Of a DNA stretch of 64,000 nucleotides, positions 31,446 through 58,297 are shown in pieces. The notes under the pieces were generated by a model. The model was not told the DNA's origin. It saw only the letters and a list, made by a program, of their open reading frames with translations, and ran no database searches. A program made the translations under genes and the position numbers. Within the stretch, counting starts at the first letter, position 1. Each line of letters opens with the position of its first letter. Source of the stretch: Felixounavirus LF110P4; sequence record OZ035790.1. The stretch is one strand, 5' to 3'.

Positions 31446-31961
31446 TCAACTTAGTTTTGCAAACTCTCCGTGGAGTTTCACAGCAGCTTCACAGTAAGCT
31501 TTATGGGCTTCTTCTTCCGTTGTGTATGTCCCTATATGTATAGTCTTGCCATTATGGTTAATCTGGGCTATCCACTTACCAGACTTGCTTCTACTTGTGC
31601 CTTTTAAGTTTTTTGATGTTCTAGGTTGTCTCCTGTTAGACATGTTCTGTTCTTTTGTGGCCTCTCTTAGATTGTCCCAAGCATTATTCAAACCATCTCC
31701 ATCTTTGTGGTCAATATGTTTATCAGGCCACTTACCTGTCATCCAGAACCAAGCAATTCGGTGATTACCTGTCCTGTACCCTAAAATCTGTGTGTGCATA
31801 TACACACCAGACCTTGTGCGCTTAATTGCTCCAGCTTGGCTTCCAATAACCACCCTACTACTATGTGGAGGTCTGCCAATCCATGTTAAGACCCCTGTTT
31901 CGGGGTCATAATCTAACCAAGACTTTAACTGTTCATGTGTGAATCCACAATCTCTCATCAA
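31446..31961 (-). CDS. HNH homing endonuclease with AP2 DNA-binding domain
   Basis: HNH_3-like IDHKDGDGLNNAWDNLR plus AP2-like GTSRSKSGKWIAQINHNGKTIHIGTYTTEEEA; overlaps DNA polymerase gene by 4 nt. Confidence 0.8.
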   Translation of the reverse strand: MMRDCGFTHEQLKSWLDYDPETGVLTWIGRPPHSSRVVIGSQAGAIKRTRSGVYMHTQILGYRTGNHRIAWFWMTGKWPDKHIDHKDGDGLNNAWDNLREATKEQNMSNRRQPRTSKNLKGTSRSKSGKWIAQINHNGKTIHIGTYTTEEEAHKAYCEAAVKLHGEFAKLS

Positions 31962-34657
31962 TGCACCTCATACCAGCTCTTACCAACCTTACCTGTGCCA
32001 GTTACAAGTGTCTCACTCTTCAAACCTAAATTCTTAGATGCCTGACCATACATCCAGTCAGTTATGGCTTTAACTTCTTGAGTCATACTTTCTGGGCATT
32101 CCCAACTGTTTTCATCGTGGTATGCCAGCAAAAGCCTAGCACCAATTGCTGGTTTTCGTCCATTTAATTTTGTCAGTCCTTCTTCACATGCTCTTCTACA
32201 AGCAAGGTTAATTGCCTCATTTTGAATCTGAGCCTCCGAACCCATAAGCAAATAATTCAATAACTTATGTGGAGATTTGCACCACAACCAAGCTCCAGCA
32301 ACTTTTACAAAGCCCCCTTTAGAGATTGCAGCAGTCTTACCAAACACCTCTTCAAGTGCCTTTTTAGTTGCTTTGTAGTCAGCTTCCAAATCATCCAGCA
32401 ACTTCTTAATTTTAGGCAAACGGATAAAGTAAGTCTGCTTAGTCAGTGCACCTTCCTGAGTAGTTGCAGCTTTAATCGTCTTAGCAAACTTCTCATCACC
32501 TGCACCGAACAGCAGTGCATAGATACCGTTCTTAGCTTTCTTACGACCTTTGCTAATCTCATGAAGAAGGTTCTCATCCTGAGTAGCTCGACAAGTCAAG
32601 ATGTCCTGCTCATCGTTCAAGCTAAAGTAAATACTGTTCAGTGTATGTGCATCAGTCCCTGAATAGACAACGTACAGGTCATTCTCAGAGTCATAGCGAA
32701 GGTACTTATCAATCTCTGGGTTGAGGTACTCATCAAAGTGTTTGCAGTAATAGCGTCTATCTTCTTGACGAATAAACTCAATCTCTTCTTTACCTTGCGT
32801 TACCGCTTTGGTGAAGTCTTTGTCACCCATAAAGTTACAAAGGAGGACTAGCTGGGCTGAGTTCATGTCTACAGAGACAACGTTAGTACCTTCTTCACAA
32901 ATCCACACTGCCCTCATTGGTTCCCCATAGACAGCAGCACCAGACGGTACGTTTACAATACCGTACTGTGTCATACGTCCAGTTGAAGTACCAAACACCA
33001 TTGCACCAGCACTAAGGCGACCATCTGGACGAATCTGGTTCAACCAACCTTTTTCATCATCCTTTGAGTTCTCAATAGTTCTGCGTCGGTGCATCAAAGT
33101 GTAGTATTTAGCAATCTTCTGTCCAAGCTCACCTTCAATCGTATCGTAAGATGATTCAGTAAGTTTTGGTGAAGTACGGATTAAGCAAGGCTCAAGCAAA
33201 TCTGTGTACTTCTTCACAGACCAGTTATGCTCAATGTACTGGACGCCTTCGTGTTCAACATAACTCAAACCACACCGCTCAACCATTTCCTGCCACTTAG
33301 GATGCTTTGTAATCATCTTTTTATTGTCTTTGAAACGACAAACTTTGACAGGGCGACCATCAGAGTCTTTCTTGTAGTTCCAGTCATCTGGAATCCAACC
33401 AACTGATTTCAAGTAGTCTTTAACAACTGCTACCTGAGTCATACGAGAAACTTCAAACTCAATTGGTGTATATGGTGCATCAATCAAACCTGTGTAGCGA
33501 CTTGACTCAAGTTCAAAGTGGTTAACAACGTGGCTGTTATAGTACTTCACAGTTTTGACTGTTTTTACTGGCTTCCAGTCTTTGCATTTCTTACCAATCT
33601 TTGCGTTCAACTCATTGCAAATTGCACGAGCATCCTTCATTGCTACAAAGCCTTCCTTGTACTCTTCACCAGTTACAGTGTTGGTTGGTGTATAGCAATT
33701 CCTTTTTTCAATGTTAAAAATCTTTGTAGTTGGCTTACCAAATGGTTTGATTTCGTATGTCTGCATCTCGCCATTACGTACCTGCTGACGATACTTTGTC
33801 TTAGGGTACTTGGTAATTCTTTTCAGTCCATCTGCATGACCAAATGTTTCAACATACTCATTCCAAGCTTTTGCAAACTCTTCTCCAGTGACTTTACCTT
33901 TGGTCTTAATAGTTGGAGGTAGATGCGGTTCAACTTCTGAAGCAAGTTCATTAGTCAACTTGTCAAGTTCCTTTACATGGAACTCCATAAGCTCTTTATC
34001 AGCTTTCCAACCATTGATAGCCTGTTGACTCATCCAGAAAGATGTTTCTTTAGCTCGCATGTAAGTTTCATAAGTGTCTATACCACACTTCTTAAGCTTG
34101 AGATACTCGTTATCAAGTGCCCGTTTAGTTTTGGCGTTAATACGGATATCTTCTACAACACGAGTGAAGATTTCTGCATTCCACACACCCCAATGCTCAA
34201 TCTCTGGCTTACGAACACCAACACGAGCACCCCATGCAGCCAAACCATGAGCACCTTTATAACCCTTTGGAGTTGGTCTATCCATCCACTGAACACGAGA
34301 CTGGATAAGAGAATCCTGAAAGTAATTACTCCACGGTTTACACTTTGGGTTATCAAAGTTCCATAAATCAGGTGCAATGTGATTAAAAACCCACCAGTCA
34401 TAACCGAGACCGTTATGGATGCAAAGACGTTTTGCCTTTAACGCAAATTCAACACCTTCACGTAAACCACCCTTAATGTACTTGGTATACTTGTGACCGA
34501 GGATAGGTTCATCTGTAAAGACCCATACAGGTGGCTCTTCATCGTCAGATTTATAGTCTGCGAAAGCCATTACGTGCACTTTAGTGAACTCAAGGAGTAA
34601 ACCATCAGTTTCTGTATCACCAACTAAATGTAAGTTTTTAAAATCTACGTTTTCCAT
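31958..34657 (-). CDS. DNA polymerase, family A, with 3'-5' exonuclease domain
   Basis: ExoI DTETDG; motif A DMNSAQL; motif B KNGIYALLFGAG; motif C YHDE; ATG at 34657 with agagggag RBS (track ORF extends to 34687). Confidence 0.9.
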   Translation of the reverse strand: MENVDFKNLHLVGDTETDGLLLEFTKVHVMAFADYKSDDEEPPVWVFTDEPILGHKYTKYIKGGLREGVEFALKAKRLCIHNGLGYDWWVFNHIAPDLWNFDNPKCKPWSNYFQDSLIQSRVQWMDRPTPKGYKGAHGLAAWGARVGVRKPEIEHWGVWNAEIFTRVVEDIRINAKTKRALDNEYLKLKKCGIDTYETYMRAKETSFWMSQQAINGWKADKELMEFHVKELDKLTNELASEVEPHLPPTIKTKGKVTGEEFAKAWNEYVETFGHADGLKRITKYPKTKYRQQVRNGEMQTYEIKPFGKPTTKIFNIEKRNCYTPTNTVTGEEYKEGFVAMKDARAICNELNAKIGKKCKDWKPVKTVKTVKYYNSHVVNHFELESSRYTGLIDAPYTPIEFEVSRMTQVAVVKDYLKSVGWIPDDWNYKKDSDGRPVKVCRFKDNKKMITKHPKWQEMVERCGLSYVEHEGVQYIEHNWSVKKYTDLLEPCLIRTSPKLTESSYDTIEGELGQKIAKYYTLMHRRRTIENSKDDEKGWLNQIRPDGRLSAGAMVFGTSTGRMTQYGIVNVPSGAAVYGEPMRAVWICEEGTNVVSVDMNSAQLVLLCNFMGDKDFTKAVTQGKEEIEFIRQEDRRYYCKHFDEYLNPEIDKYLRYDSENDLYVVYSGTDAHTLNSIYFSLNDEQDILTCRATQDENLLHEISKGRKKAKNGIYALLFGAGDEKFAKTIKAATTQEGALTKQTYFIRLPKIKKLLDDLEADYKATKKALEEVFGKTAAISKGGFVKVAGAWLWCKSPHKLLNYLLMGSEAQIQNEAINLACRRACEEGLTKLNGRKPAIGARLLLAYHDENSWECPESMTQEVKAITDWMYGQASKNLGLKSETLVTGTGKVGKSWYEVH

Positions 34658-34687
34658 TTTTACTCCCTCTAAAATCATTAACCTCAT

Positions 34688-40537: not shown

Positions 40538-41584
40538 ATGGAGAAGTACACATTAAAAAAACTTCCCGATTCAGTTACACATGTCTTTATTGACTCTGAC
40601 AGTATTGCCTATAAAGGTGCTTGTGTAGTTGAGAAAGCAAAATATAAATATGTCAATAAACTCACAGCAGAAGAATCTGAATCATTTGATAATGCAAAAG
40701 ATGCTGCAAGATGGTTAGCAGACCAGAGAATCCTTGTAGAAGAGCTTGGCCTAGCATTTGATGAAGATGAATGGGAAAGACAGACTTGGAAAGAAGCTAA
40801 GAGTGAAAAAGAAGCTATCATGGCTACTCAGCAGGTTCTTCAGGAATGGCTTAAGGTTGTTGGTAAAGAAAGAACTTGGGTAGGTTATTTAACAGAGAAA
40901 GGTGTGCATAAACATAAAGACATTAAAGGTCTTGAGCACCAATATCAAGGGAACCGTAAAGATGCTGTCACACCAACACACTTAGTTGCTTGTCGTGAAT
41001 ACCTTCTGTCAAGACCAGAGTTCAAATTGATTCTTGATGGATTTGAAGCTGACTCTATCGTTATTGCTAAAGCTGAAAAGATGGGTAAAAAGGCTGCCTT
41101 AATGAGTATTGATAAAGACCTTCGCCAAGCTGAAGGGACTTACTGCATTGATATGACCTATGAAAAGTCGCCTTTGATTTTCATTGCTGATAACAACGTA
41201 GGTGAAATTTGGGATTGCCCAATAAAATCGACACCAAAAGCTAAGAAGACAGTTGGGGTAGGTTTTAAATTTCTTTGCTATCAAGCCGTGGCTGGTGATA
41301 ATGCGGATAATTATTTTGGCTTAAAGGGTGTTGGCAAGGTTACTATAATGAAAGCCCTTGAAGGCAAAACCACCTACAAAGAGTGTCTTGATGCAATTTA
41401 TGAGCTTTATGCTAAGAAAGAGTCATACACTTATATCTCGTGGGATGGTCAAACAATTACCAGAACACCTTTAGAGTTAATGCAGCAACACTTTTTCTTA
41501 GCTTATCAGGAAAGAAACAAGAAAGATGATTTCACTTTTGATAAGTATGGATGGACACCAAATGTTAACCCAACAAACTCTTAA
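40538..41584 (+). CDS. 5'-3' exonuclease / flap endonuclease (RNase H-like)
   Basis: N-terminal acidic PIN-like FIDSDSIAY; H3TH-like GLKGVGKVTIMKAL. Confidence 0.6.
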   Translation: MEKYTLKKLPDSVTHVFIDSDSIAYKGACVVEKAKYKYVNKLTAEESESFDNAKDAARWLADQRILVEELGLAFDEDEWERQTWKEAKSEKEAIMATQQVLQEWLKVVGKERTWVGYLTEKGVHKHKDIKGLEHQYQGNRKDAVTPTHLVACREYLLSRPEFKLILDGFEADSIVIAKAEKMGKKAALMSIDKDLRQAEGTYCIDMTYEKSPLIFIADNNVGEIWDCPIKSTPKAKKTVGVGFKFLCYQAVAGDNADNYFGLKGVGKVTIMKALEGKTTYKECLDAIYELYAKKESYTYISWDGQTITRTPLELMQQHFFLAYQERNKKDDFTFDKYGWTPNVNPTNS

Positions 41585-42053
41585 AGAATACCTACACTAT
41601 GACCCCGAAACAGGGGTCTTTACTTGGATTAAGAAGTCTGCTAGACACACAAAAATTGGCTCTGTTGCAGGTACAAACTTAAGAGGGTACACCAGAATTT
41701 ATTTGTTTGGTAAGGGTTATTATGCACATACTCTAGCTGTTCTGTATATGGATGGATACCTACCTGAGTGTGTTGACCATAAAAATCATGTAACACTAGA
41801 CAATCGATGGGTAAATCTTAGGGCATGTACATTATCAGAGAACCAATGCAATAGGTTGCTCAATAAGAACAATAAATCAGGTGTTAAAGGTGTGTACTAC
41901 AAAAAACAGTATGGTAAGTGGTCTACACAGATAACTTTTAAGAAGAAAGTTTACTTCTTCGGAAACTATGACACTATTGATGAAGCAGCAGAGGTTGTAA
42001 ATAGGGAACGCCAACGTTTACACAAAGAGTTTGCTAATAAAGGTGATGAATGA
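41547..42053 (+). CDS. HNH homing endonuclease with AP2 domain
   Basis: YDPETGVFTW, HNH_3-like VDHKNHVTLDNRWVNLR, AP2-like GVKGVYYKKQYGKWSTQITF; paralog of the 31446 and 55269 genes. Confidence 0.75.
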   Translation: MDGHQMLTQQTLKEYLHYDPETGVFTWIKKSARHTKIGSVAGTNLRGYTRIYLFGKGYYAHTLAVLYMDGYLPECVDHKNHVTLDNRWVNLRACTLSENQCNRLLNKNNKSGVKGVYYKKQYGKWSTQITFKKKVYFFGNYDTIDEAAEVVNRERQRLHKEFANKGDE

Positions 42054-48335: not shown

Positions 48336-50480
48336 ATGAACAAAGTACAGATTATTAAAAAGAATGGCTCACTTGAAGAACCTGATATCAAAAAAGTTTT
48401 AGCAGCAGTAACTAAGTCAGCTAACAGGGTTGGATATAAAGAACTCCCACCAGATGTTACCCAAGCTCTTGAGTCAGCATTTATGAGGATTCTGGTAAAG
48501 TCCACTAAACAGAATAATTTGCTAATTTCGGTAAATGATATTCACAGTATTGTTGAGGGTGCTTTGGCAGAAGTCAATCACGAAATCTATGAGTCTTACT
48601 CAACATATAGAAATTACCGTAAAGAAGTTGCTCAAAATTGGGATGAACTCTACCAGAAGACCAGAGATACACTCTTCTTAGGTGACAGAGAGAATGCTAA
48701 CTTTGACAGCAGTTTAATTTCTACAAAAGGTTCAATTATTCGTGGTTACCTGACTAAAGAAATCTTTAAGCAGTACCATTTAACACCAGAGGAACTTGAA
48801 GCCATTGAAAAAGGGTTTATCTATATCCACGATTTAAGAGACCTGATTTTTGGCGGCATTAACTGTTGCTTGTTTGACATTGGTAAAGTACTGAAAGGTG
48901 GCTTTGAGATGTCTGGCATCGAATACTGTGAACCGAAGTCTGTGCTGTCAGCCTTACAGGTTATTGGTGATGTAGTTCTTTCAGCAACTGCACAGCAATT
49001 TGGTGGATTTACTTTAGCAGAGATTGATAAGGTGCTTGTACCGTATGCTAAAAAGTCTCTACGCTACCATGCTGAGAAAGCAGCATCTTACGGTATTCCT
49101 AAAGAACATTACCACAATTATGTCATGGAGCAGCTACAGCTTGAATTAACTCAGGGTTTCCAGTCACTCGAAATGAAACTAAATACTGTACCTTGTAGCC
49201 GTGGTGATTTTGCATTTACAACTTTGACATTTGGATTACTTGACTCAGATATGTCTAATGAAGACAACCGACTGCAATACATGATTGCAAACACCATTCT
49301 TGATGTTCGCATGAATGGACAAGGTAAGAGTAAGAAGCCTGTTGTATTCCCTAAACTGGTTTATATTCATGACCAGAAGAGACACGATGAGAATATCTGT
49401 CAAGGCCAACTGTACAGTAAAGCTATAGAGTGTTGCTCTAAAGCGATGTATCCAGATTTCTTAAGTGTATCTGGTCATGGTGCTGTAGCAGAAGCTTTTG
49501 AGCGTTCTGGCAAGGTAATCTCGCCGATGGGTTGTAGAGCCTTCTTATCTCCATATCTTAACGAGGATGGGGAAGAGTTCTACGTTGGTCGTGCTAACAT
49601 TGGTGCTGTATCTTTGAACTTACCAATGATTTACCAGTATTCTAAAGAGAATGGTTTAGATTTCTGGAAAGAGCTTGATAAGTACCTAGAGATGATTCGC
49701 AACTTCCACAAGAAACGCTACGAAATGATTGCTAATATGCCAGCAAGTTCTAACCCTCTTGCGTTCACACAAGGTGGTCTGTACAAAGGAACTAAGAAAC
49801 CTACTGACAAGGTTGGTTGGGATATTGTGAAGTCCTTCACAGCTTCTTTTGGTGTTACTGCGCTTGATGAGTTGTCTGTTCTTGCTGAAGGTAAACGACT
49901 TCATGAAGTTGGAAGCTATAGTTTTGCATATGATGTTCTGGCATACATTAACATGAAAACCGAAGAGTTTAAAAATGAAGATGGCTTCTTATATGCCGTC
50001 TATGGTACTCCAGCAGAATCACTATGTGGGACTCAGCTAAAACAGTTCAGAGATATGTTTGGGGTTATCAAAGGTGTTTCCGATAAGGAATACTTTACAA
50101 ACAGTTTCCATATGAATGTTGTAGCAGACATCTCACCATTTGAGAAGCAGGACTTAGAAGAGCCATTCTTCCATATCTGTAGAGGCGGTAGAATCCAGTA
50201 TGTAAGAGTAGCTAACCCAGAAAACTTATCAGCACTTAAGAGCTGTATTACAAGAGGAATGTTGAAAGGTTTCTATCAGGGACTTAACTTTGACTTAGCA
50301 ATCTGTGAACATTGTGGTAACAGGCCAAAGGCTGATGTTGAAGAATGTGAAGTTTGTCACTCACATGATATCTCTGTGATTAACAGGGTGTGCGGGTACT
50401 TGTCATTCACAAAAATTAAAGGTCAGTCTCGAATGAATGACGCTAAGATGGCAGAAATTAAGGATAGGGTTTCTATGTAG
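48336..50480 (+). CDS. nrdD: anaerobic ribonucleoside-triphosphate reductase
   Basis: N-terminal ATP-cone; zinc ribbon CEHCGN...CEVC; glycyl-radical motif RVCGYLS near C-terminus; 714 aa colinear. Confidence 0.9.
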   Translation: MNKVQIIKKNGSLEEPDIKKVLAAVTKSANRVGYKELPPDVTQALESAFMRILVKSTKQNNLLISVNDIHSIVEGALAEVNHEIYESYSTYRNYRKEVAQNWDELYQKTRDTLFLGDRENANFDSSLISTKGSIIRGYLTKEIFKQYHLTPEELEAIEKGFIYIHDLRDLIFGGINCCLFDIGKVLKGGFEMSGIEYCEPKSVLSALQVIGDVVLSATAQQFGGFTLAEIDKVLVPYAKKSLRYHAEKAASYGIPKEHYHNYVMEQLQLELTQGFQSLEMKLNTVPCSRGDFAFTTLTFGLLDSDMSNEDNRLQYMIANTILDVRMNGQGKSKKPVVFPKLVYIHDQKRHDENICQGQLYSKAIECCSKAMYPDFLSVSGHGAVAEAFERSGKVISPMGCRAFLSPYLNEDGEEFYVGRANIGAVSLNLPMIYQYSKENGLDFWKELDKYLEMIRNFHKKRYEMIANMPASSNPLAFTQGGLYKGTKKPTDKVGWDIVKSFTASFGVTALDELSVLAEGKRLHEVGSYSFAYDVLAYINMKTEEFKNEDGFLYAVYGTPAESLCGTQLKQFRDMFGVIKGVSDKEYFTNSFHMNVVADISPFEKQDLEEPFFHICRGGRIQYVRVANPENLSALKSCITRGMLKGFYQGLNFDLAICEHCGNRPKADVEECEVCHSHDISVINRVCGYLSFTKIKGQSRMNDAKMAEIKDRVSM

Positions 50481-50487
50481 AATACAA

Positions 50488-51066
50488 ATGAATTACGAAC
50501 TAATATATAATGCAATTATTAAAAAGGCACATTCTGAAAGGGGTGTGCCTCTCACATACTACAAATGTCAAGGTAAGGGTTATGAAAGACACCATATCAT
50601 ACCAGTATGTCTAGGTGGCGATAAAATTAGTGGAGATAACATTGCTTTACTTACACCTAGAGAGCATTATATAGCTCATAAATTACTGGTTAAGATGTAT
50701 CCAAACAATCATAAGTTATGGTTTGCATGGAGCAGGTTAGCTCATGATGGCCTAGATAGGAAAATATCATCCAGAGACTATGAAAAGGTAAGGGCTTTAA
50801 ACTCGAAAGCTCTATCGATTGTGAATAAAGGTAGGGTTTTCACTGAAGAGCATCGAAGACGATTAGGAGAAGCTCAAATAGGTAATACAAAGTCAAAAGG
50901 TTGTAAAAGGTCTATGGAAACAAGGAAGAAGATGTCAGAAGCCGGAAAAAAGCCAAAGAAAAAGAAAACTTGCCCGCATTGTGGCATGACTGGTGGTGCT
51001 GGTAACATGACTCGATATCATTTTGACAATTGTAAGAAAAAAAAAATAACCTTATGTAAAACTTGA
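50488..51066 (+). CDS. HNH homing endonuclease with NUMOD-like repeats
   Basis: HNH motif RHHIIPVCLGGDKISGDNIALLTPREH; NUMOD3-like FTEEHRRRLGEAQIG and SMETRKKMSEAGKK; between nrdD and nrdG. Confidence 0.75.
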   Translation: MNYELIYNAIIKKAHSERGVPLTYYKCQGKGYERHHIIPVCLGGDKISGDNIALLTPREHYIAHKLLVKMYPNNHKLWFAWSRLAHDGLDRKISSRDYEKVRALNSKALSIVNKGRVFTEEHRRRLGEAQIGNTKSKGCKRSMETRKKMSEAGKKPKKKKTCPHCGMTGGAGNMTRYHFDNCKKKKITLCKT

Positions 51067-51121
51067 CAAGGTGGTGTGGGTCTTGATAGGCTTACATCAC
51101 CTTTTTATTTGGAGTTACATT

Positions 51122-51457
51122 ATGGACTTGTGGCTTTATGTAGCAGTTTGTGGGATTGTATGTCTGATAATCTTATTTATTCTTGGAATAATGCGATTTA
51201 GAGACATCATACAGTCAGATTTTTTGCCTGAGTTTGCCATGATGGTTGGAGTTATTGCACTTTGTGTCTTGGCGGTGTTCTATTCATACAAAACTGTGAT
51301 ATGGATGAAGTCAAACAATTGTGTAAAAACTCATCAACATCGTGAGGTTACTTATTTTGTGAGTGTACTTAGTGGGAACACCACTGTACTTGTCCCACAA
51401 ACTTCTGTAGAGTATCTTTACACATGTGATAATGGTAAAACTATATGGTGGAATTAA
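51122..51457 (+). CDS. small membrane protein
   Basis: two predicted TM helices; track ORF 51071 (GTG) trimmed to ATG 51122. Confidence 0.35.
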   Translation: MDLWLYVAVCGIVCLIILFILGIMRFRDIIQSDFLPEFAMMVGVIALCVLAVFYSYKTVIWMKSNNCVKTHQHREVTYFVSVLSGNTTVLVPQTSVEYLYTCDNGKTIWWN

Positions 51458-51459
51458 CA

Positions 51460-51660
51460 ATGGCAACACTCTTAAAGGTATTGACACCCACACTACACAT
51501 AGTAATCTTCTTCTTTGGGGTTAGTGTTATGGTATGGGGTTTTTCAGACCCACAATGGAGTTTCTCATATCATGGTCAGATGGATTTATGGTCATGCTTC
51601 AAACCATTTTTAGGGTTAGTCATAGCATTCAGTGCATTACCAACTAAGGTGAAATTATGA
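51460..51660 (+). CDS. small membrane protein
   Basis: hydrophobic segment HIVIFFFGVSVMVWGF. Confidence 0.35.
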   Translation: MATLLKVLTPTLHIVIFFFGVSVMVWGFSDPQWSFSYHGQMDLWSCFKPFLGLVIAFSALPTKVKL

Positions 51661-53208: not shown

Positions 53209-53529
53209 ATGAGCAAAGTTTATAACACTCGTAAATTACAGATTTTCGTACTGTGCCAGTTTATGGCTAAAGAATGCAACTTCTACTATTGTGGTACAGG
53301 TTTTATTAGCGATGATGATGGCTCATACCTCCCATTCAAAGAAGCTGTAAAACTCTTTAATGAAGAGAAAAGCTCTAAGAAAGATATTGAAAAGGTTAAG
53401 CTAACCTACAGCAAGAAAGATAAGAAGATTATCTGCCTAGATAACTTTGTGAAAGTTACTGGAGAAGCAAAAGAGTTTATGGATGAGAGTGAGATTTCAT
53501 TCACAAGCATCTTGAAAGTAGCTCAGTAA
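53209..53529 (+). CDS. hypothetical protein
   Basis: 106 aa ORF. Confidence 0.35.
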   Translation: MSKVYNTRKLQIFVLCQFMAKECNFYYCGTGFISDDDGSYLPFKEAVKLFNEEKSSKKDIEKVKLTYSKKDKKIICLDNFVKVTGEAKEFMDESEISFTSILKVAQ

Positions 53530-53580: not shown

Positions 53581-54096
53581 ATGTATCTGTCAAACCTGAA
53601 ACGTTCGGTTGCAATGTCAGTTCTAAGACTCAGCTTTGATGAGCGTCAAGAGTTTATAGACTCCCACAAATATGACCCTTCAAATTCTAATCACATGGTT
53701 CTTTGGAATCGTGATAACTTCCGTGAAAGAGCACTTGTCCGTTATTACCCACACTACACAATAGATAACCTGTATGAATGGTGTGTTGTGAAGAACACCA
53801 TTGCAACACTGAACAATCTTTGCAGGTATACGGGTAAGCAAACATTTACATTAGGTCATCACAAACCTGTTACAAAAGGTGGTGAACATCACTGTGCAAA
53901 CTGGTTTATCCAAACTAAAGCTGATAACCAGAAGCAAGGAGATAGCCTCCTAAGTATCCCTAAGATGACCTATGAAGAGCAAGAGAAATATATCAAAAAT
54001 AATATGCCAGATGTGCTTGACAACAACTATACAGATTTGGCAATATCTCTCCTGTTGAAGTTCGAGACAGTTTATAGGGCAACTTATAATGGCTAA
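53581..54096 (+). CDS. hypothetical protein with HNH-like motif
   Basis: LGHHKPVTKGGEHHCANWFIQTKADNQKQG resembles an HNH nuclease core. Confidence 0.4.
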   Translation: MYLSNLKRSVAMSVLRLSFDERQEFIDSHKYDPSNSNHMVLWNRDNFRERALVRYYPHYTIDNLYEWCVVKNTIATLNNLCRYTGKQTFTLGHHKPVTKGGEHHCANWFIQTKADNQKQGDSLLSIPKMTYEEQEKYIKNNMPDVLDNNYTDLAISLLLKFETVYRATYNG

Positions 54097-54367
54097 AGAA
54101 AAGTGGGAGATTTTAACATTAGTCAGTGAAGGAGGTAATGGTTGTGAAATGTACATGATACGTGGTCATGTTCCAGAGCCAATTGCACTTGAGATGGTAA
54201 ACAACTTTACAGATGGTTCTTACAAAGACTTAGGCGAACCAACTGTCAAGCAACAATGGGTTAAACCTGTACCAGACAGCACAGGTAACTGTAGTGTACT
54301 TTATCACGTTGTAGACCCTGCAAAATGCAAATCTGCAATGGCAGTAACAAACGTAACTTTTGATTGA
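54089..54367 (+). CDS. hypothetical protein
   Basis: 92 aa ORF. Confidence 0.35.
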   Translation: MAKEKWEILTLVSEGGNGCEMYMIRGHVPEPIALEMVNNFTDGSYKDLGEPTVKQQWVKPVPDSTGNCSVLYHVVDPAKCKSAMAVTNVTFD

Positions 54368-54378
54368 GAGAGAAAACT

Positions 54379-55260
54379 ATGAAAACATCTATCCGTGTTA
54401 CAGTTCATTCACCAACTAAAGGAACTCATGAAGAAGAGTTTAACATCATCCAATTTCCTTCTGGTGAGATTGGTGGACACTTTTCGCCAGAGTTTGTTGA
54501 TTTCACTGCTTATGCAGCATCATCCATCAACAATGTGATTATGATTGTAAAAGGTTATGATAAGGACACTTTGTTTGCTGTGGCACTTGCTAAAGAAGCA
54601 ATTGATGATTTAATTCCTCATGATTATGCTTTAAAGACTGTCATCTTTTACTACTTACCAAATGCACGTTATGACCGTCACATGTTTAAAGGCGACGCAG
54701 CAGCTTTAAAGGTTTTTGCTAAACAGGTAAATGCAATGGGATTTGGTGCAGTCTGTGCAGTTGACCCTCACAGTTACGTTCCAGATAACCTGTTTAACTG
54801 CTTCCAGAGTATTCCTCAAAAGGAGATTGCAGTCCACTATGCAAATGACCCACTGGTTGATTACTTAGTAGCCCCAGATGCAGGTGCTGCTAAGAAGGTT
54901 GCAGAGACCGCTAAAGAGGTGGATAAACCATATATCACAATGTCTAAGGTGCGTAACCTTAAGACTGGTGAAATTACTGGTATGCGAATCCTTGATGATG
55001 TTGATTTGACAGATAAAACCGTCATGATTCTGGATGATATCTGTGATGGTGGTCGAACCTTCATAGAAGCAGCTAAGCATCTTCGTGAAGCAGGTGCAAA
55101 ACGTGTGGAACTCTATGTAACACATGGTATCTTCTCTAAAGATGTTGAAAACCTTCTTGACAATGGTATTGACCACATCTACACTACAAACTCTTTAGGG
55201 GAAGCTAAAGACCGTGGTTTAACACATTATGGTCAAGTTACTGTAGCAAATTTGGACTAG
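54379..55260 (+). CDS. prs: ribose-phosphate pyrophosphokinase-like protein (PRPP synthetase family; candidate NARP1 Adps)
   Basis: phosphoribosyltransferase PRPP-binding motif VMILDDICDGGRTF; ~294 aa; paired with NAMPT-like gene. Confidence 0.75.
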   Translation: MKTSIRVTVHSPTKGTHEEEFNIIQFPSGEIGGHFSPEFVDFTAYAASSINNVIMIVKGYDKDTLFAVALAKEAIDDLIPHDYALKTVIFYYLPNARYDRHMFKGDAAALKVFAKQVNAMGFGAVCAVDPHSYVPDNLFNCFQSIPQKEIAVHYANDPLVDYLVAPDAGAAKKVAETAKEVDKPYITMSKVRNLKTGEITGMRILDDVDLTDKTVMILDDICDGGRTFIEAAKHLREAGAKRVELYVTHGIFSKDVENLLDNGIDHIYTTNSLGEAKDRGLTHYGQVTVANLD

Positions 55261-55268
55261 GTAACAGT

Positions 55269-55760
55269 ATGAATAAGGGTTATTTTGAAAAATACCTAAT
55301 ATATGAACCAGATACAGGTTTATTAATTTGGAAAGTAACCCTTTGCAGTACCGCTATTGCTGGTAATGTGGCTGGCACAAGGTCTAAGAAGGGTTATATC
55401 CAAGTCCAGATAAATAAGAAGAGGTACTATGCACATAATATTGCATGGATTATGTCTGGGGGTGAGATACCAAGTGGATATGAGATAGACCACATAGACC
55501 TTGATAAAGCTAATAATAAGTTGGAGAACTTAAGACTTAGCACAAAGTCACAAAATCAGAGGAATAGGGGTATACACAAGAATAATAAGACTGGTGTGAA
55601 GGGTGTAAGTTTTTGTAAACAAACAGGTCTTTACAAAGCAAGAGTCATGCTTTACCATAAAGAATACTTTTGTGGAAGATTTAAAACAGTAGAAGAAGCA
55701 AAAGAAGCTGTAATTAAAAAGCGAATAGAACTTCATGGTGAGTTTGCAAGACATAACTAA
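55269..55760 (+). CDS. HNH homing endonuclease with AP2 domain
   Basis: YEPDTGLLIW, HNH_3-like EIDHIDLDKANNKLENLR, AP2-like GVKGVSFCKQTGLYKARV; inserted between prs-like and NAMPT-like genes. Confidence 0.75.
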   Translation: MNKGYFEKYLIYEPDTGLLIWKVTLCSTAIAGNVAGTRSKKGYIQVQINKKRYYAHNIAWIMSGGEIPSGYEIDHIDLDKANNKLENLRLSTKSQNQRNRGIHKNNKTGVKGVSFCKQTGLYKARVMLYHKEYFCGRFKTVEEAKEAVIKKRIELHGEFARHN

Positions 55761-55776
55761 GAGAGAGAGATAAAAT

Positions 55777-57558
55777 ATGAGTAAGTCACTTTACGCAGTA
55801 CCAGCAGGTCTTAATGCAGATGCTTACAAGGCATCACATATATATCAGTATCCAGATGCTACACAGTATCTTATGTTGAACCTGACACCACGTAGTGACA
55901 AATGGTTTAACAGCCCCTTAGCAATTGACGGTGTAGTGGCTTTTGGTATTCAACGTTTTGTTAAAGACTACCTGATAGACCACTGGAATGCCACCTTCTT
56001 TGAACGTGACAAAAAAGAAGCAATTGACGAAATCTTAGAAGTCATGAACGGTGTTCTGGGTAAAGATGCTATTGGTCGAGAACATTGGGAAGCACTTCAC
56101 GACTTAGGTTATCTACCAGTTGAAGTATACGCTGTAGAAGAAGGTACAGTTGTTCCTATGCGTGTACCAATGATTGTCTTCCAGAATACTGTTTCAGGTT
56201 TCCATTGGGTAGCGGGGTATCTGGAAGATGCTTTCTCTGCTGAGATTTGGAAGGCTTGTACCATTGCAACTATTGCATTGCACTACAAACGTATCTGTAA
56301 GAAGTGGTCTGACCTTACTTGTGACAACGACTTGCATTTGCCTTATCAGTGCCATGATTTTGCTATGCGTGGTATGTCCGGCTTTACCGATGACGCATTT
56401 AACGCTGTAGGCCACTTAACCAGCTTTAAAGGAACTGATAGCTTCCCTGCTGTGTATACGGCTAAACGAATCTATGGACAGTCTTACCCAATATCTGATA
56501 TTGGTAGCTCTGTACCAGCCACTGAGCACTCTGTAATGTGTGCAAACATTGCTTGGGAAGGTGGTAATGAGTTGATTGAAGAAGAAAGACGCTTTAAAGG
56601 TGAGTTACAAACCTTCCGTCGTTTCTTAACAGAAACTTACCCAACTGGTATTGCAAGTATTGTTTCAGATACTTATAACTTCTGGAGAACTGTGTCAGAA
56701 ATCTTACCAGCACTCCGTAAAGAAATTATGGAACGTGATGGTAAACTGGTAATTCGCCCTGACTCTGGAGACCCTGTACATATTGTCACAGGTTATAAAG
56801 CAATCCACTTAGAGTGTGCTAAAAAGGCTTATTACGAGCACCTAAGCAAGCTTGAAGCCAGCGACACAATGTTGAATGCTGTTCTGAACATGAAGCTTGA
56901 AAACATCAACTATGGTATTGCTGGATGGCTACTGTCAGAAGGCTACGAAATGGTTGTTGACAGAGAAGACTTTGAAGTTGCTGATACAGTGCTGTTGAAA
57001 AACGCTTATATGGTTGGTTCTGCAAACGTTGTAACACGTCCTGTAGCGGAGATTGATGGAGCTATCAAGACACTGTATAACATCTTTGGGGGAACTATTA
57101 ACTCTAAAGGGTTTAAGGTACTGGATGAGCACATCGGCCTTATCTATGGTGACTCTATCACGCTGGAACGTGCAAACGAAATCCTGAAGCGTCTGTATGA
57201 AATGGGTTTTGCAAGCTCTAACGTAGTATTTGGTGTAGGCTCTTACACTTACCAGTACATGACTCGTGACACCTTTGCATTTGCTGTCAAAGCAACTCTT
57301 GCAAGCATTGGTGGTAAAGAGATTATGCTTGCAAAAGACCCTAAAACAGATAGTGGTGTTAAGAAATCTGCCTTTGGTGGTGTAGCACCTATGTGGGATG
57401 GTGAAAATCTGAAAGCTGTAGATGGCTATGGGTTCCAGAGCTTTGCAGATGCACTTGAACACCCAGCTTGTGCTTTACGTCTAGTCTTTAGTGACTCTGA
57501 GCAGTTCGGCTACACAACTCTTGGTGATATTCGAAATAATATTGACAAGCAGCTTTAA
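55777..57558 (+). CDS. nadV: nicotinamide phosphoribosyltransferase-like protein (NadV/NAMPT family; candidate NARP1 Namat)
   Basis: 593 aa; overall resemblance to NAMPT and genomic pairing with PRPP-synthetase-like gene. Confidence 0.7.
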   Translation: MSKSLYAVPAGLNADAYKASHIYQYPDATQYLMLNLTPRSDKWFNSPLAIDGVVAFGIQRFVKDYLIDHWNATFFERDKKEAIDEILEVMNGVLGKDAIGREHWEALHDLGYLPVEVYAVEEGTVVPMRVPMIVFQNTVSGFHWVAGYLEDAFSAEIWKACTIATIALHYKRICKKWSDLTCDNDLHLPYQCHDFAMRGMSGFTDDAFNAVGHLTSFKGTDSFPAVYTAKRIYGQSYPISDIGSSVPATEHSVMCANIAWEGGNELIEEERRFKGELQTFRRFLTETYPTGIASIVSDTYNFWRTVSEILPALRKEIMERDGKLVIRPDSGDPVHIVTGYKAIHLECAKKAYYEHLSKLEASDTMLNAVLNMKLENINYGIAGWLLSEGYEMVVDREDFEVADTVLLKNAYMVGSANVVTRPVAEIDGAIKTLYNIFGGTINSKGFKVLDEHIGLIYGDSITLERANEILKRLYEMGFASSNVVFGVGSYTYQYMTRDTFAFAVKATLASIGGKEIMLAKDPKTDSGVKKSAFGGVAPMWDGENLKAVDGYGFQSFADALEHPACALRLVFSDSEQFGYTTLGDIRNNIDKQL

Positions 57559-57570
57559 AAGTATATGATA

Positions 57571-57597
57571 AGAGGCTCCTACGGGAGCCTTTTTAAT
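57571..57597 (+). terminator. intrinsic terminator
   Basis: gaggctcc-tacg-ggagcc then TTTTT. Confidence 0.65.
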
Positions 57598-57611
57598 TTC
57601 TGGAGAATGCT

Positions 57612-57956
57612 ATGGACAACCTTTCCATATGGTTTAACAAGAAACCTGTGCAACCGAAATACTTACAAGTTGCCTATACAGACATCCTTGAAGTTCTCGG
57701 TAAAGAAAAGTTTGAAAAGTTTTGTGAAGGTATCTACAATCACCACTGCCAATTTGCTACAAAAGAAGGTATGTTTGTCATAGAACAGTTCTTTGGCAGA
57801 GACCCAGATGACTACGAAGAGATTAGCTTTGTAATGAAATACATGATAGAGTATATTGAAAATCGTGGATTCGAAGTTAATCCTGAATTTTATGAACATG
57901 AGGGTGTGCCTTTAGCAAAAGGTTTTGATGGCATACTCGTTAACTGGACTTGGTGA
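57612..57956 (+). CDS. hypothetical protein
   Basis: 114 aa with ggag RBS. Confidence 0.4.
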   Translation: MDNLSIWFNKKPVQPKYLQVAYTDILEVLGKEKFEKFCEGIYNHHCQFATKEGMFVIEQFFGRDPDDYEEISFVMKYMIEYIENRGFEVNPEFYEHEGVPLAKGFDGILVNWTW

Positions 57957-57961
57957 AAATT

Positions 57962-58297
57962 ATGAAAATCAAAGAGATGAACATCAACATTGTCTTAGAA
58001 GAGCGTTGGGAGAACATCAAGAAACCTGAAAATGGTCATAAGTTCCTTAACAAAATCTTGGTAGCAGCTAAAGAAGAACTGACTGGAAAGGTTGCAGCAG
58101 CAATCACAATAAAGGTTTGTGTAAAAGGTCTTCCACAACATCACCAGTTTGCACTTGACGAGTTTAAAGAAAGCTTCTACAATCCAAACAAACAGATGCT
58201 TGAAAGTAACTTTGCAGTATCTACAAGTATCGTTCATGACAGAAGCTTTATCCTTTACAAAAATATGAGAGGTGAGTCATGCAAGCATATTGGATAG
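57962..58297 (+). CDS. hypothetical protein
   Basis: track ORF 57950 (TTG) trimmed to ATG 57962. Confidence 0.35.
   Translation: MKIKEMNINIVLEERWENIKKPENGHKFLNKILVAAKEELTGKVAAAITIKVCVKGLPQHHQFALDEFKESFYNPNKQMLESNFAVSTSIVHDRSFILYKNMRGESCKHIG

Follow-up and report, generated by a model that had tools for sequence, protein, structure and literature searches.

Among the T-even phages, freestanding homing endonucleases include SegF, SegG, MobE, SegH and Hef. The seg- and mob-like genes of these phages are intergenic nuclease genes that are polymorphic among relatives and are accompanied by the co-conversion of adjacent markers, while their donors are protected by sequence differences (Petrov et al. 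2010). Cleavage and homing have been demonstrated experimentally for the T-even enzymes, which belong to the GIY-YIG or to other HNH types and carry different DNA-binding modules, whereas we infer both activities for the protein described here. HNH-AP2 genes make up one of the homing-gene classes tabulated for T4-like phages by Petrov et al. 2010, who also describe intronless homing. The family is very large, with tblastn matches in 2956 phage records. T7 gp3.8, the product of gene 3.8 (included in those matches; 34 % identity by tblastn), and the HNH-AP2 endonucleases of the T4-related phages RB49, RB43, RB16 and JSE have the same two-domain architecture as the protein under study, although the T4-related and T7 genes occupy other insertion sites in phages of other hosts and show less than 45 % identity to it. 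Our literature search, which was not focused on that question, found no biochemically characterized phage HNH-AP2 enzyme.

Felix O1-like phages are known to carry several HNH endonuclease genes, and the gene described here is already known and annotated. Felix O1 has six HNH endonuclease genes, which were left uncharacterized (Whichard et al. 2010), and a later review, with reference to Magnani et al. 2004 and Wuitschick et al. 2004, names Felix 01 and RB49 as carriers of HNH endonucleases with an AP2 domain. Comparative papers on Felixounavirus report that the number of homing endonucleases is variable, in an analysis that does not cover the prs-namat site. In Felix O1, the same gene is found at the same site (AF320576 ORF305, AAQ14742), and the record notes similarity to T7 gene 3.8; about 60 other Ounavirinae, including Mushroom, VpaE1, pinkbiff, Si3 and phiSUSP1, have it at that site with 90–99 % amino acid identity. 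In GenBank, the ORF is entered for these relatives as 'HNH (homing) endonuclease', and the copy described here shows no material difference from the annotated ones beyond a few residues. What the present analysis adds is population evidence for mobility, the anatomy of a replacement, a linked haplotype of the downstream gene and the splitting of an anti-defence operon.

That operon is NARP1, which in the Felixounavirus Bas63 consists of genes 79–80: Adps makes ADPR-pyrophosphate, and Namat joins ADPR-pyrophosphate to nicotinamide (NARP1 preprint). The pathway rebuilds NAD+ and so defeats NAD+-depleting defences, and deletion of both Bas63 genes results in sensitivity to SIR2-HerA (NARP1 preprint). 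Homing is not mentioned in that preprint. The enzymology of NARP1 was performed on SpbetaL1 homologues, and the gene pair described here is assigned to the pathway by homology.

The stretch of DNA that was analysed, referred to as the window, comprises 64,000 nt of Felixounavirus LF110P4 (OZ035790.1). Its relevant features are as follows.

54364..55260, + strand: prs-like gene, homologue of Adps (ADP-ribose pyrophosphate synthetase of NARP1); Pfam, PHROG, Bas63_0079
55261..55268, + strand: 8-nt spacer, GTAACAGT, from the prs-like TAG stop to the endonuclease ATG, left edge of the insert; sequence, junction alignments
55269..55760, + strand: freestanding HNH-AP2 endonuclease gene, very probably a homing gene; ORF call, Pfam, PHROG, alignment, model
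55425..55562, + strand: HNH (beta-beta-alpha metal) nuclease core, residues 53–98; Pfam HNH_3, alignment, I-HmuI fold match
55590..55739, + strand: predicted AP2-type DNA-binding domain, residues 108–157; sub-threshold Pfam match, model, superposition
55761..55776, + strand: 16-nt spacer with the downstream gene's ribosome-binding stretch, GAGAGAGA; the insert has its right edge at the 5' end of this spacer
55777..57558, + strand: NAMPT-like gene, homologue of Namat (nicotinamide ADP-ribose transferase of NARP1); Pfam, PHROG, Bas63_0080
55777..55875, + strand: hapA, the insert-linked haplotype, approximately codons 1–33 of the Namat gene; putative co-conversion tract

The upstream gene, whose start is placed at the ATG at 54379 in the annotation of relatives (293 aa), matches Pribosyltran and Pribosyl_synth in Pfam and PHROG 619 at 1.6e-96, and its product is 78 % identical to Bas63_0079. 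The downstream gene matches NAPRTase and NAMPT_N in Pfam and PHROG 448 at 2e-201, with 97 % amino acid identity to Bas63_0080. The preliminary description, which was made from the sequence alone, had named these neighbours as two NAD-pathway genes of prs-like and NAMPT-like type; the domains fit, but the pair corresponds to Adps and Namat of NARP1 rather than to classical Prs and NadV. The Bas63 operon has a homologous gene pair in the same order, contiguous across a 45-nt hairpin spacer and with the haplotype termed hapB below, whereas the endonuclease gene interrupts the operon in the window, where the haplotype is hapA.

The endonuclease gene and its protein

The ORF at 55269–55760 on the + strand starts with ATG, ends with TAA and encodes 163 aa. 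The HNH_3 profile (PF13392) aligns over all of its 46 positions with residues 53–98 of the product (E 5.5e-19; 68 bits against a cut-off of 24.8 bits), and PHROG 99, 'HNH endonuclease', is matched at 1.5e-68; no NCBIfam model matches the protein. In an alignment of the window protein with 63 homologues of 32–80 % identity, D74, H75, N87, R89, N96 and N99 are invariant, the last of these lying just outside the HNH core, while H56 and N83 are almost invariant. The conserved HNH residues are kept in all 11 orthologues compared. For the C-terminal part, the AP2 profile (PF00847) gives E 5e-4 on residues 108–157 with a score of 20.7 bits, below the cut-off of 33.3 bits, and precomputed PF00847 matches are present in many homologues of the endonuclease.

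An AlphaFold2 model built from the homologue alignment has a mean pLDDT of 93.8. The HNH part is predicted to comprise strands 71–75 and 88–92 and helix 93–97, all with pLDDT above 90, and the C-terminal domain to consist of three antiparallel strands (113–116, 121–128 and 131–138) and a helix (141–159). The modelled C-terminal domain superposes on the AP2 domains of TEM1 (7et5; rmsd 1.2 Å over 54 columns) and AtERF1 (1gcc; rmsd 1.4 Å over 51 columns), in both cases with a probability of 1.00. The best PDB match of the whole model is I-HmuI of the Bacillus phage SPO1 (1u3e; Foldseek E 1.3e-4, probability 1.00), with which it shares the N-terminal sheet and the HNH beta-beta-alpha metal core at 18 % identity and a TM score of approximately 0.48. 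I-HmuI differs in being encoded by an intron and in having a C-terminal DNA-binding part of a type other than AP2, whereas the ORF in the window is freestanding and its product has an AP2-type domain in the model. The protein sequence matched no PDB chain, even at E values up to 1, and the structural tie to I-HmuI and to AP2 domains comes entirely from the predicted model. The label HNH-AP2 stands, its AP2 half being a prediction supported by the modelled structure and by homologues and not by the protein's own Pfam score.

The ORF call, Pfam, PHROG and the AlphaFold2 model bear out the earlier reading of a freestanding HNH-AP2 ORF between a prs-like and a NAMPT-like gene. An intron-encoded origin was rejected after an Rfam scan of 54300–57700 at a permissive threshold returned three chance-level matches and no intron, and an intein is ruled out by the stop codons on both sides of the ORF. 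Beyond the ORF itself, the insert contains only 24 nt. A paralogue at 31446–31961 of the window scores 35.9 bits for AP2, above the Pfam threshold.

Junction anatomy and distribution among relatives

The gap that holds the ORF had been described as flanked by 16 nt, which is correct for the downstream spacer (55761–55776; GAGAGAGAGATAAAAT) but not for the upstream one, which measures only 8 nt (55261–55268). Similarly, the notion of an insertion into the gap between the two genes is right as to position, but the gap was not empty, as about 30 nt including a hairpin were replaced. At insert-free junctions the prs gene ends in TGA, followed by AACTTTATA-GGGGCTTGAAAGCCCC-ATTTT and then by GAGAGAGAT..ATG. 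The junction alignment shows the GAGAGAGAT...ATG stretch to be common to insert-bearing and insert-free alleles, and the two classes part at the second stop-codon base (TAG vs TGA) and agree again only at the shared GAGAGAGA stretch. The insert-free spacer between the two genes is 45–46 nt long and contains a GC-rich hairpin with a folding energy between −11.5 and −12.8 kcal/mol and z scores between −2.5 and −3.7. This hairpin is conserved in Felixounavirus and in Mooglevirus Sf19, has the same sequence in Bas63, and is absent from insert-bearing alleles together with the rest of the approximately 30 nt missing from the spacer. Loss of the ORF by deletion would not restore the hairpin, and for this reason the allele with the hairpin is regarded as the ancestral, uninvaded state; as the hairpin is conserved across genera, deletion was likewise rejected as the main origin of insert-free alleles.

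A terminator scan of L008, an insert-free locus, passed over the hairpin, which has only four T residues 3' of it; for these reasons it is named here a conserved hairpin and not a terminator. The promoter scan near the ORF yielded only weak consensus matches, and as the promoter-like match at 55157–55185 is also present in L008, no dedicated promoter can be claimed for the endonuclease gene. The fold at the ORF start that would sequester the ribosome-binding site is no better than that of shuffled sequence (z −0.93).

The 5-kb stretch around the ORF finds matches in 258 phage records, nearly all of them Escherichia, Salmonella, Shigella and Citrobacter phages of the Felix O1 group (Ounavirinae), and the best full-length match is 96.6 % identical. 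Insert typing relied on a junction-spanning query, for which flank-only matches span 645–649 nt and matches with the insert 1118 nt. By this measure, the ORF is present at the junction in 61 GenBank records, while the two genes are adjacent in about 190 Felix O1-like records; with the 251 records in which the namat 5' end alone is found as the denominator, insert carriers amount to approximately 24 %. In IMG/VR, 6 of 28 loci have the insert and 22 lack it. The polymorphism extends to close relatives, as the insert is present in pinkbiff and absent from Alf5, the namesake of the species to which pinkbiff is assigned; Bas63 also lacks it. Orthologues with at least 90 % amino acid identity occur in about 60 records, and in every insert-bearing locus inspected the gene occupies the same junction. 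The same is true of an 80 %-identical orthologue on a metagenomic contig and of a 57 %-identical one in the Pectobacterium phage Arno162, both of which lie between the same two genes. The existence of insert-free variants among relatives had been predicted, and comparison of the prs-nadV junction across related genomes had been suggested as a check; the counts from both databases confirm the prediction, and the comparison reveals an ORF that is polymorphic at one precise site. The NARP1 operon is thus split in about one quarter of these phages.

Independent history and rival explanations

The ORF is very probably a freestanding HNH-AP2 homing endonuclease gene, selfish and mobile, located between adps and namat. 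Intronless homing, as originally proposed, is supported by the polymorphism of the insert, by a divergence decoupled from that of the flanks and by a flanking tract that accompanies the gene. The second of these is apparent from pairwise comparisons with other insert-bearing loci. Between the window and L012, amino acid identity is 98.7 % for prs, 92 % for the endonuclease and 99.5 % for Namat, and dS is 0.45 in the gene and 0.16–0.20 in the flanks. Between the window and L030, which is the Suspvirus phiSUSP1, the order is inverted, with 76 % identity for prs, 93 % for the endonuclease and 76 % for Namat. The dS of the gene is 0.22 between L012 and L030, against 1.2–1.3 for the flanks, and 0.04 between the window and L016, against 0.23–0.30. 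The decoupling of dS from the flanks shows that the gene moved between lineages, and even between genera, long after their split. Since phage genomes are mosaic through ordinary recombination, this incongruence alone does not prove nuclease-driven movement.

The endonuclease gene appears from its sequence record to be a live or recently live homing gene, and nuclease activity and self-favouring inheritance in mixed infections would be attributed to it by analogy. In the manner of the seg and mob genes of T-even phages, homing would begin when one cell is co-infected by a phage that has the insert and a phage that lacks it. The AP2 domain may then bind a specific sequence located at the insert-free junction or close to it, and the HNH domain may nick or cut that DNA; recombinational repair would copy the nuclease gene from the insert-bearing genome, carrying along about 100 nt of the namat 5' end and displacing the approximately 30 nt that contain the conserved GC-rich hairpin. 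A clean double-strand break is not assured, because I-HmuI, the closest structural relative, is a nicking enzyme. Any drive is presumably weak, opposed or limited by resistant alleles, since only about 24 % of relatives carry the gene.

Homing could also have consequences for the operon that hosts the gene. That the endonuclease is more than a bystander in NARP1, in that it spreads an N-terminal variant of Namat by conversion and removes the hairpin, is considered unlikely. The variant concerned would consist of six residue changes beside the nicotinamide-contacting Asp and Tyr. If this were true, homing would change an anti-immunity phenotype of Felix O1-like phages or help it to spread among them, or would arm their rivalry during co-infection.

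It is very unlikely that the gene is a passive passenger, that is, a former homing endonuclease that was inserted once, long ago, and has since been exposed to ordinary homologous recombination and to replacement by insert-free alleles. Such a history would agree with the occurrence of the gene in only 61 of about 250 relatives and with the generally mosaic nature of Felix O1-like genomes (illustrated by the 78 and 97 % identity of prs and namat to Bas63), but the transferred segment has sharp boundaries, the left one at the stop codon and the right one about 100 nt inside namat, which points to targeted transfer. The orthologues of 57–80 % identity at the same site in distant lineages, whose divergence tracks that of the flanks, do suggest long vertical residence, whereas between genera the dS of the gene is approximately six-fold below that of the flanks. 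Moreover, all 11 copies compared have 163 codons with no stops or frameshifts, their pairwise dN/dS values are 0.05–0.20 (pairs with saturated dS included) and the catalytic residues are invariant, none of which is expected after loss of function. To judge from these coding sequences, purifying selection argues against a decaying remnant.

The same selection fits selfish drive and phage benefit alike, and does not distinguish between them. A domesticated or dual-use nuclease, kept because it benefits the phage by cutting rival phages in the same cell (interference competition) or by altering NARP1 expression via the AP2 domain or the removal of the hairpin, is nevertheless very unlikely: the flanking anti-defence genes are engaged in an arms race, and the lost hairpin together with the 8-nt and 16-nt gaps would permit co-transcription with adps and namat, but approximately 76 % of relatives do without the gene, including Bas63 with its working NARP1 operon, promoter and terminator scans gave nothing decisive, and benefit is inseparable from selfish drive by sequence, as active homing alone maintains purifying selection.

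The insert-linked Namat haplotype and the candidate homing targets

A homing gene of this kind may be expected to be accompanied by a linked flanking tract, and a linked tract is seen here on one side only. Insert-associated sites were defined by a difference in major-allele frequency of at least 0.6 between insert-bearing and insert-free alleles among 19 Felixounavirus-type loci. Within 55776–55872, which comprises the last base of the spacer and the first 96 nt of the downstream gene, 21 such sites were detected; the 1.4 kb upstream contained none, and the other 1.7 kb downstream contained three. The variants of the tract comprise proximal SNPs at 55781, 55785 and 55794 and a distal cluster at 55829–55872. 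The insert-linked haplotype, hapA, is present in all insert-bearing loci examined (the window, six IMG/VR loci, Felix O1, pinkbiff and phiSUSP1) and encodes S2, A/S19, S20, I22, D27 and Q30, whereas hapB, the common insert-free type, encodes T, S, G, V, S and E at the same six positions. Of the 17 Namat differences between the window and Bas63, 7 fall in the first 34 residues, inside the tract.

L030, the Suspvirus locus, is 93 % identical to the window in the tract and 76 and 82 % identical on either side; against its insert-free congener L028, the tract is 88 % identical and the sequences on either side 96–97 % (Fisher p 0.0007 to 0.015 for these contrasts). These identities suggest that the transferred unit extended from the prs stop codon to approximately 55850–55880. 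Over 251 GenBank records, tract identity to the window is bimodal, reaching at least 95 % in 80 of them and falling to 60–80 % in 112, and mosaic tracts are seen in loci L011, L013 and L020 and in 20 GenBank records at 90–95 %. As 80 tracts are of the hapA type and only 61 records have the insert, at least about 19 records must have hapA without the insert. One example is SP2, which has the hairpin spacer and no insert, yet carries hapA with only 2 differences in the first 100 nt. In its sequence pattern, the tract of approximately 100 nt looks like the product of co-conversion, and it holds candidate target or immunity polymorphisms; given that hapA also occurs without the insert, the linkage could instead reflect which allele is invadable.

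Three natural alleles are therefore available at the site: hairpin with hapB, hairpin with hapA, and insert with hapA. The first is represented by Bas63, the second by SP2, SEP1 and RPN213, and the third by phages such as pinkbiff, ekra and skuden. Phages with these alleles, among them Bas63 of the BASEL collection, grow on E. coli K-12, and this trio offers a handy system in which an HNH-AP2 homing enzyme could be studied biochemically and genetically for the first time. As the Namat 5' haplotypes are tied to a mobile element, the existence of two of them is worth knowing when NARP1 is compared or engineered, and for therapeutic Felix O1-like phages the region should be masked in phylogenies and recombination analyses.

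Within the homing interpretation, two candidate targets are about equally probable on sequence alone. In one case, the hapB-type namat 5' end, at approximately codons 18–33, would be cut, and hapA would be the immune variant that enters along with the gene. This is favoured by the strong one-sidedness of the linkage (no associated site upstream of the insert, 21 in the roughly 100 nt downstream of it) and by the entry of the tract into Suspvirus together with the gene. Homing enzymes typically target conserved, functionally constrained sequence, and the tract encodes the conserved, catalytic motif NADAYK-x-x-H-x-YQYP. In SpbetaL1 Namat, Asp13 and Tyr15 contact nicotinamide (NARP1 structure paper), and the motif holds the equivalents of both residues. 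However, if hapB were readily cut, the insert would be expected to be commoner than 24 %.

In the other case, the hairpin spacer and the first namat codons of hapA would be recognized, the insert would destroy the site and hapB would be resistant. Alleles with hapA and no insert do exist, the insert was never seen on hapB, and its frequency has a ceiling of 24 %, all of which would agree with recognition of the hairpin and hapA. The hairpin consists of a G-run and a C-run, and a cyanobacterial HNH-linked AP2 domain reportedly binds runs of G and C; in addition, the divergent Arno162 orthologue adjoins a KSGH-type sequence. On the other hand, the densest cluster of linked substitutions lies 70–85 nt from the insertion point, too far for a protein of 163 aa that would have to span the hairpin as well. 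On the opposite side of the insert, the last prs codons in the window form a synonymous variant of their own (AAT TTG GAC), which is partly shared by L012 only.

Mosaicism of the NARP1 operon

The Adps-like (prs-like) gene of the NARP1 operon at 54364-55260 shares only 78 % identity with its counterpart in Bas63 (L040 12747-13625), a relative in which the two operon genes are contiguous, whereas the neighbouring Namat gene is 97 % identical between the window and the same phage. Most of the divergence of the Adps-like gene resides in the N-terminal 180 residues, and the operon itself is thus a recombinational mosaic. Such mosaicism is independent of the insertion of the studied gene, which encodes a freestanding HNH-AP2 endonuclease.

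At the 3' end of the prs-like gene (55249-55260), the window reads AAT TTG GAC TAG, while most relatives, whether insert-bearing or insert-free, have AAC CTT GAT followed by TAG or TGA. The three synonymous changes are clustered against the left edge of the studied insert, and the only relative resembling the window at this site is L012 (AAT TTG GAT TAG), a related locus that carries the insert.

Further endonuclease-like ORFs

The window contains two additional HNH-AP2 ORFs and, in the nrdD region, an ORF with a different motif.

41526-42053, plus strand: second HNH-AP2 ORF, 175 aa (Pfam HNH_3, 1.3e-11; AP2 weak)
31446-31961, minus strand: third HNH-AP2 ORF (Pfam HNH_3, 1.3e-14; AP2, 35.9 bits)
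50437-51066, plus strand: NUMOD3 ORF, 209 aa (NUMOD3 motif, 2.4e-6; weak colicin/pyocin DNase-like match)

The second ORF, immediately preceded by a 348-aa ORF (40538-41584), exhibits 39 % identity to the studied 163-aa endonuclease. Bas63 lacks the stretch 41549-42045, and this ORF is therefore a further presence/absence insert. The third ORF (37 % identity to the studied protein), whose AP2 match exceeds the curated cut-off, adjoins a 909-aa ORF on the same strand (31958-34687).

The 209-aa ORF is probably a freestanding homing endonuclease of a family other than HNH-AP2. Directly upstream lies a 714-aa ORF (48336-50480) that aligns with nrdD of Bas63, and the NUMOD3 ORF falls within a block of approximately 1 kb (50482-51489) missing from that phage. 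The Bas63 nrdD is interrupted by a 742-nt insertion (L040 7828-8570). Its annotation is that of a split CDS, inside which lies bas63_0068, a 'putative homing endonuclease'. This insertion is absent from the window, and nrdD is thus uninterrupted at the matching point (~49533).

ORFs bordering the operon

53209-53529, plus strand: 106-aa ORF (DUF7390)
53581-54096, plus strand: 171-aa ORF of unknown function (PHROG 3500; weak HNH PHROG match, 2.3e-6)
within 57950-58297, plus strand: 115-aa ORF of unknown function

The record of the related phage pinkbiff describes the 106-aa ORF as a 'putative HNH homing endonuclease', a designation that looks unfounded because DUF7390 is the sole match of the window copy. 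Pfam gives no match for the 171-aa ORF, in place of which two shorter ORFs are annotated in ULIM3.

The stretch 57950-58297 (~350 nt), immediately past the Namat gene and its next ORF, is a further small accessory indel. Most relatives lack it (93 % coverage of the 5-kb query around the studied gene, with a record span ~351 nt shorter), and ULIM3, D4, I14.1 and Z31 retain it.
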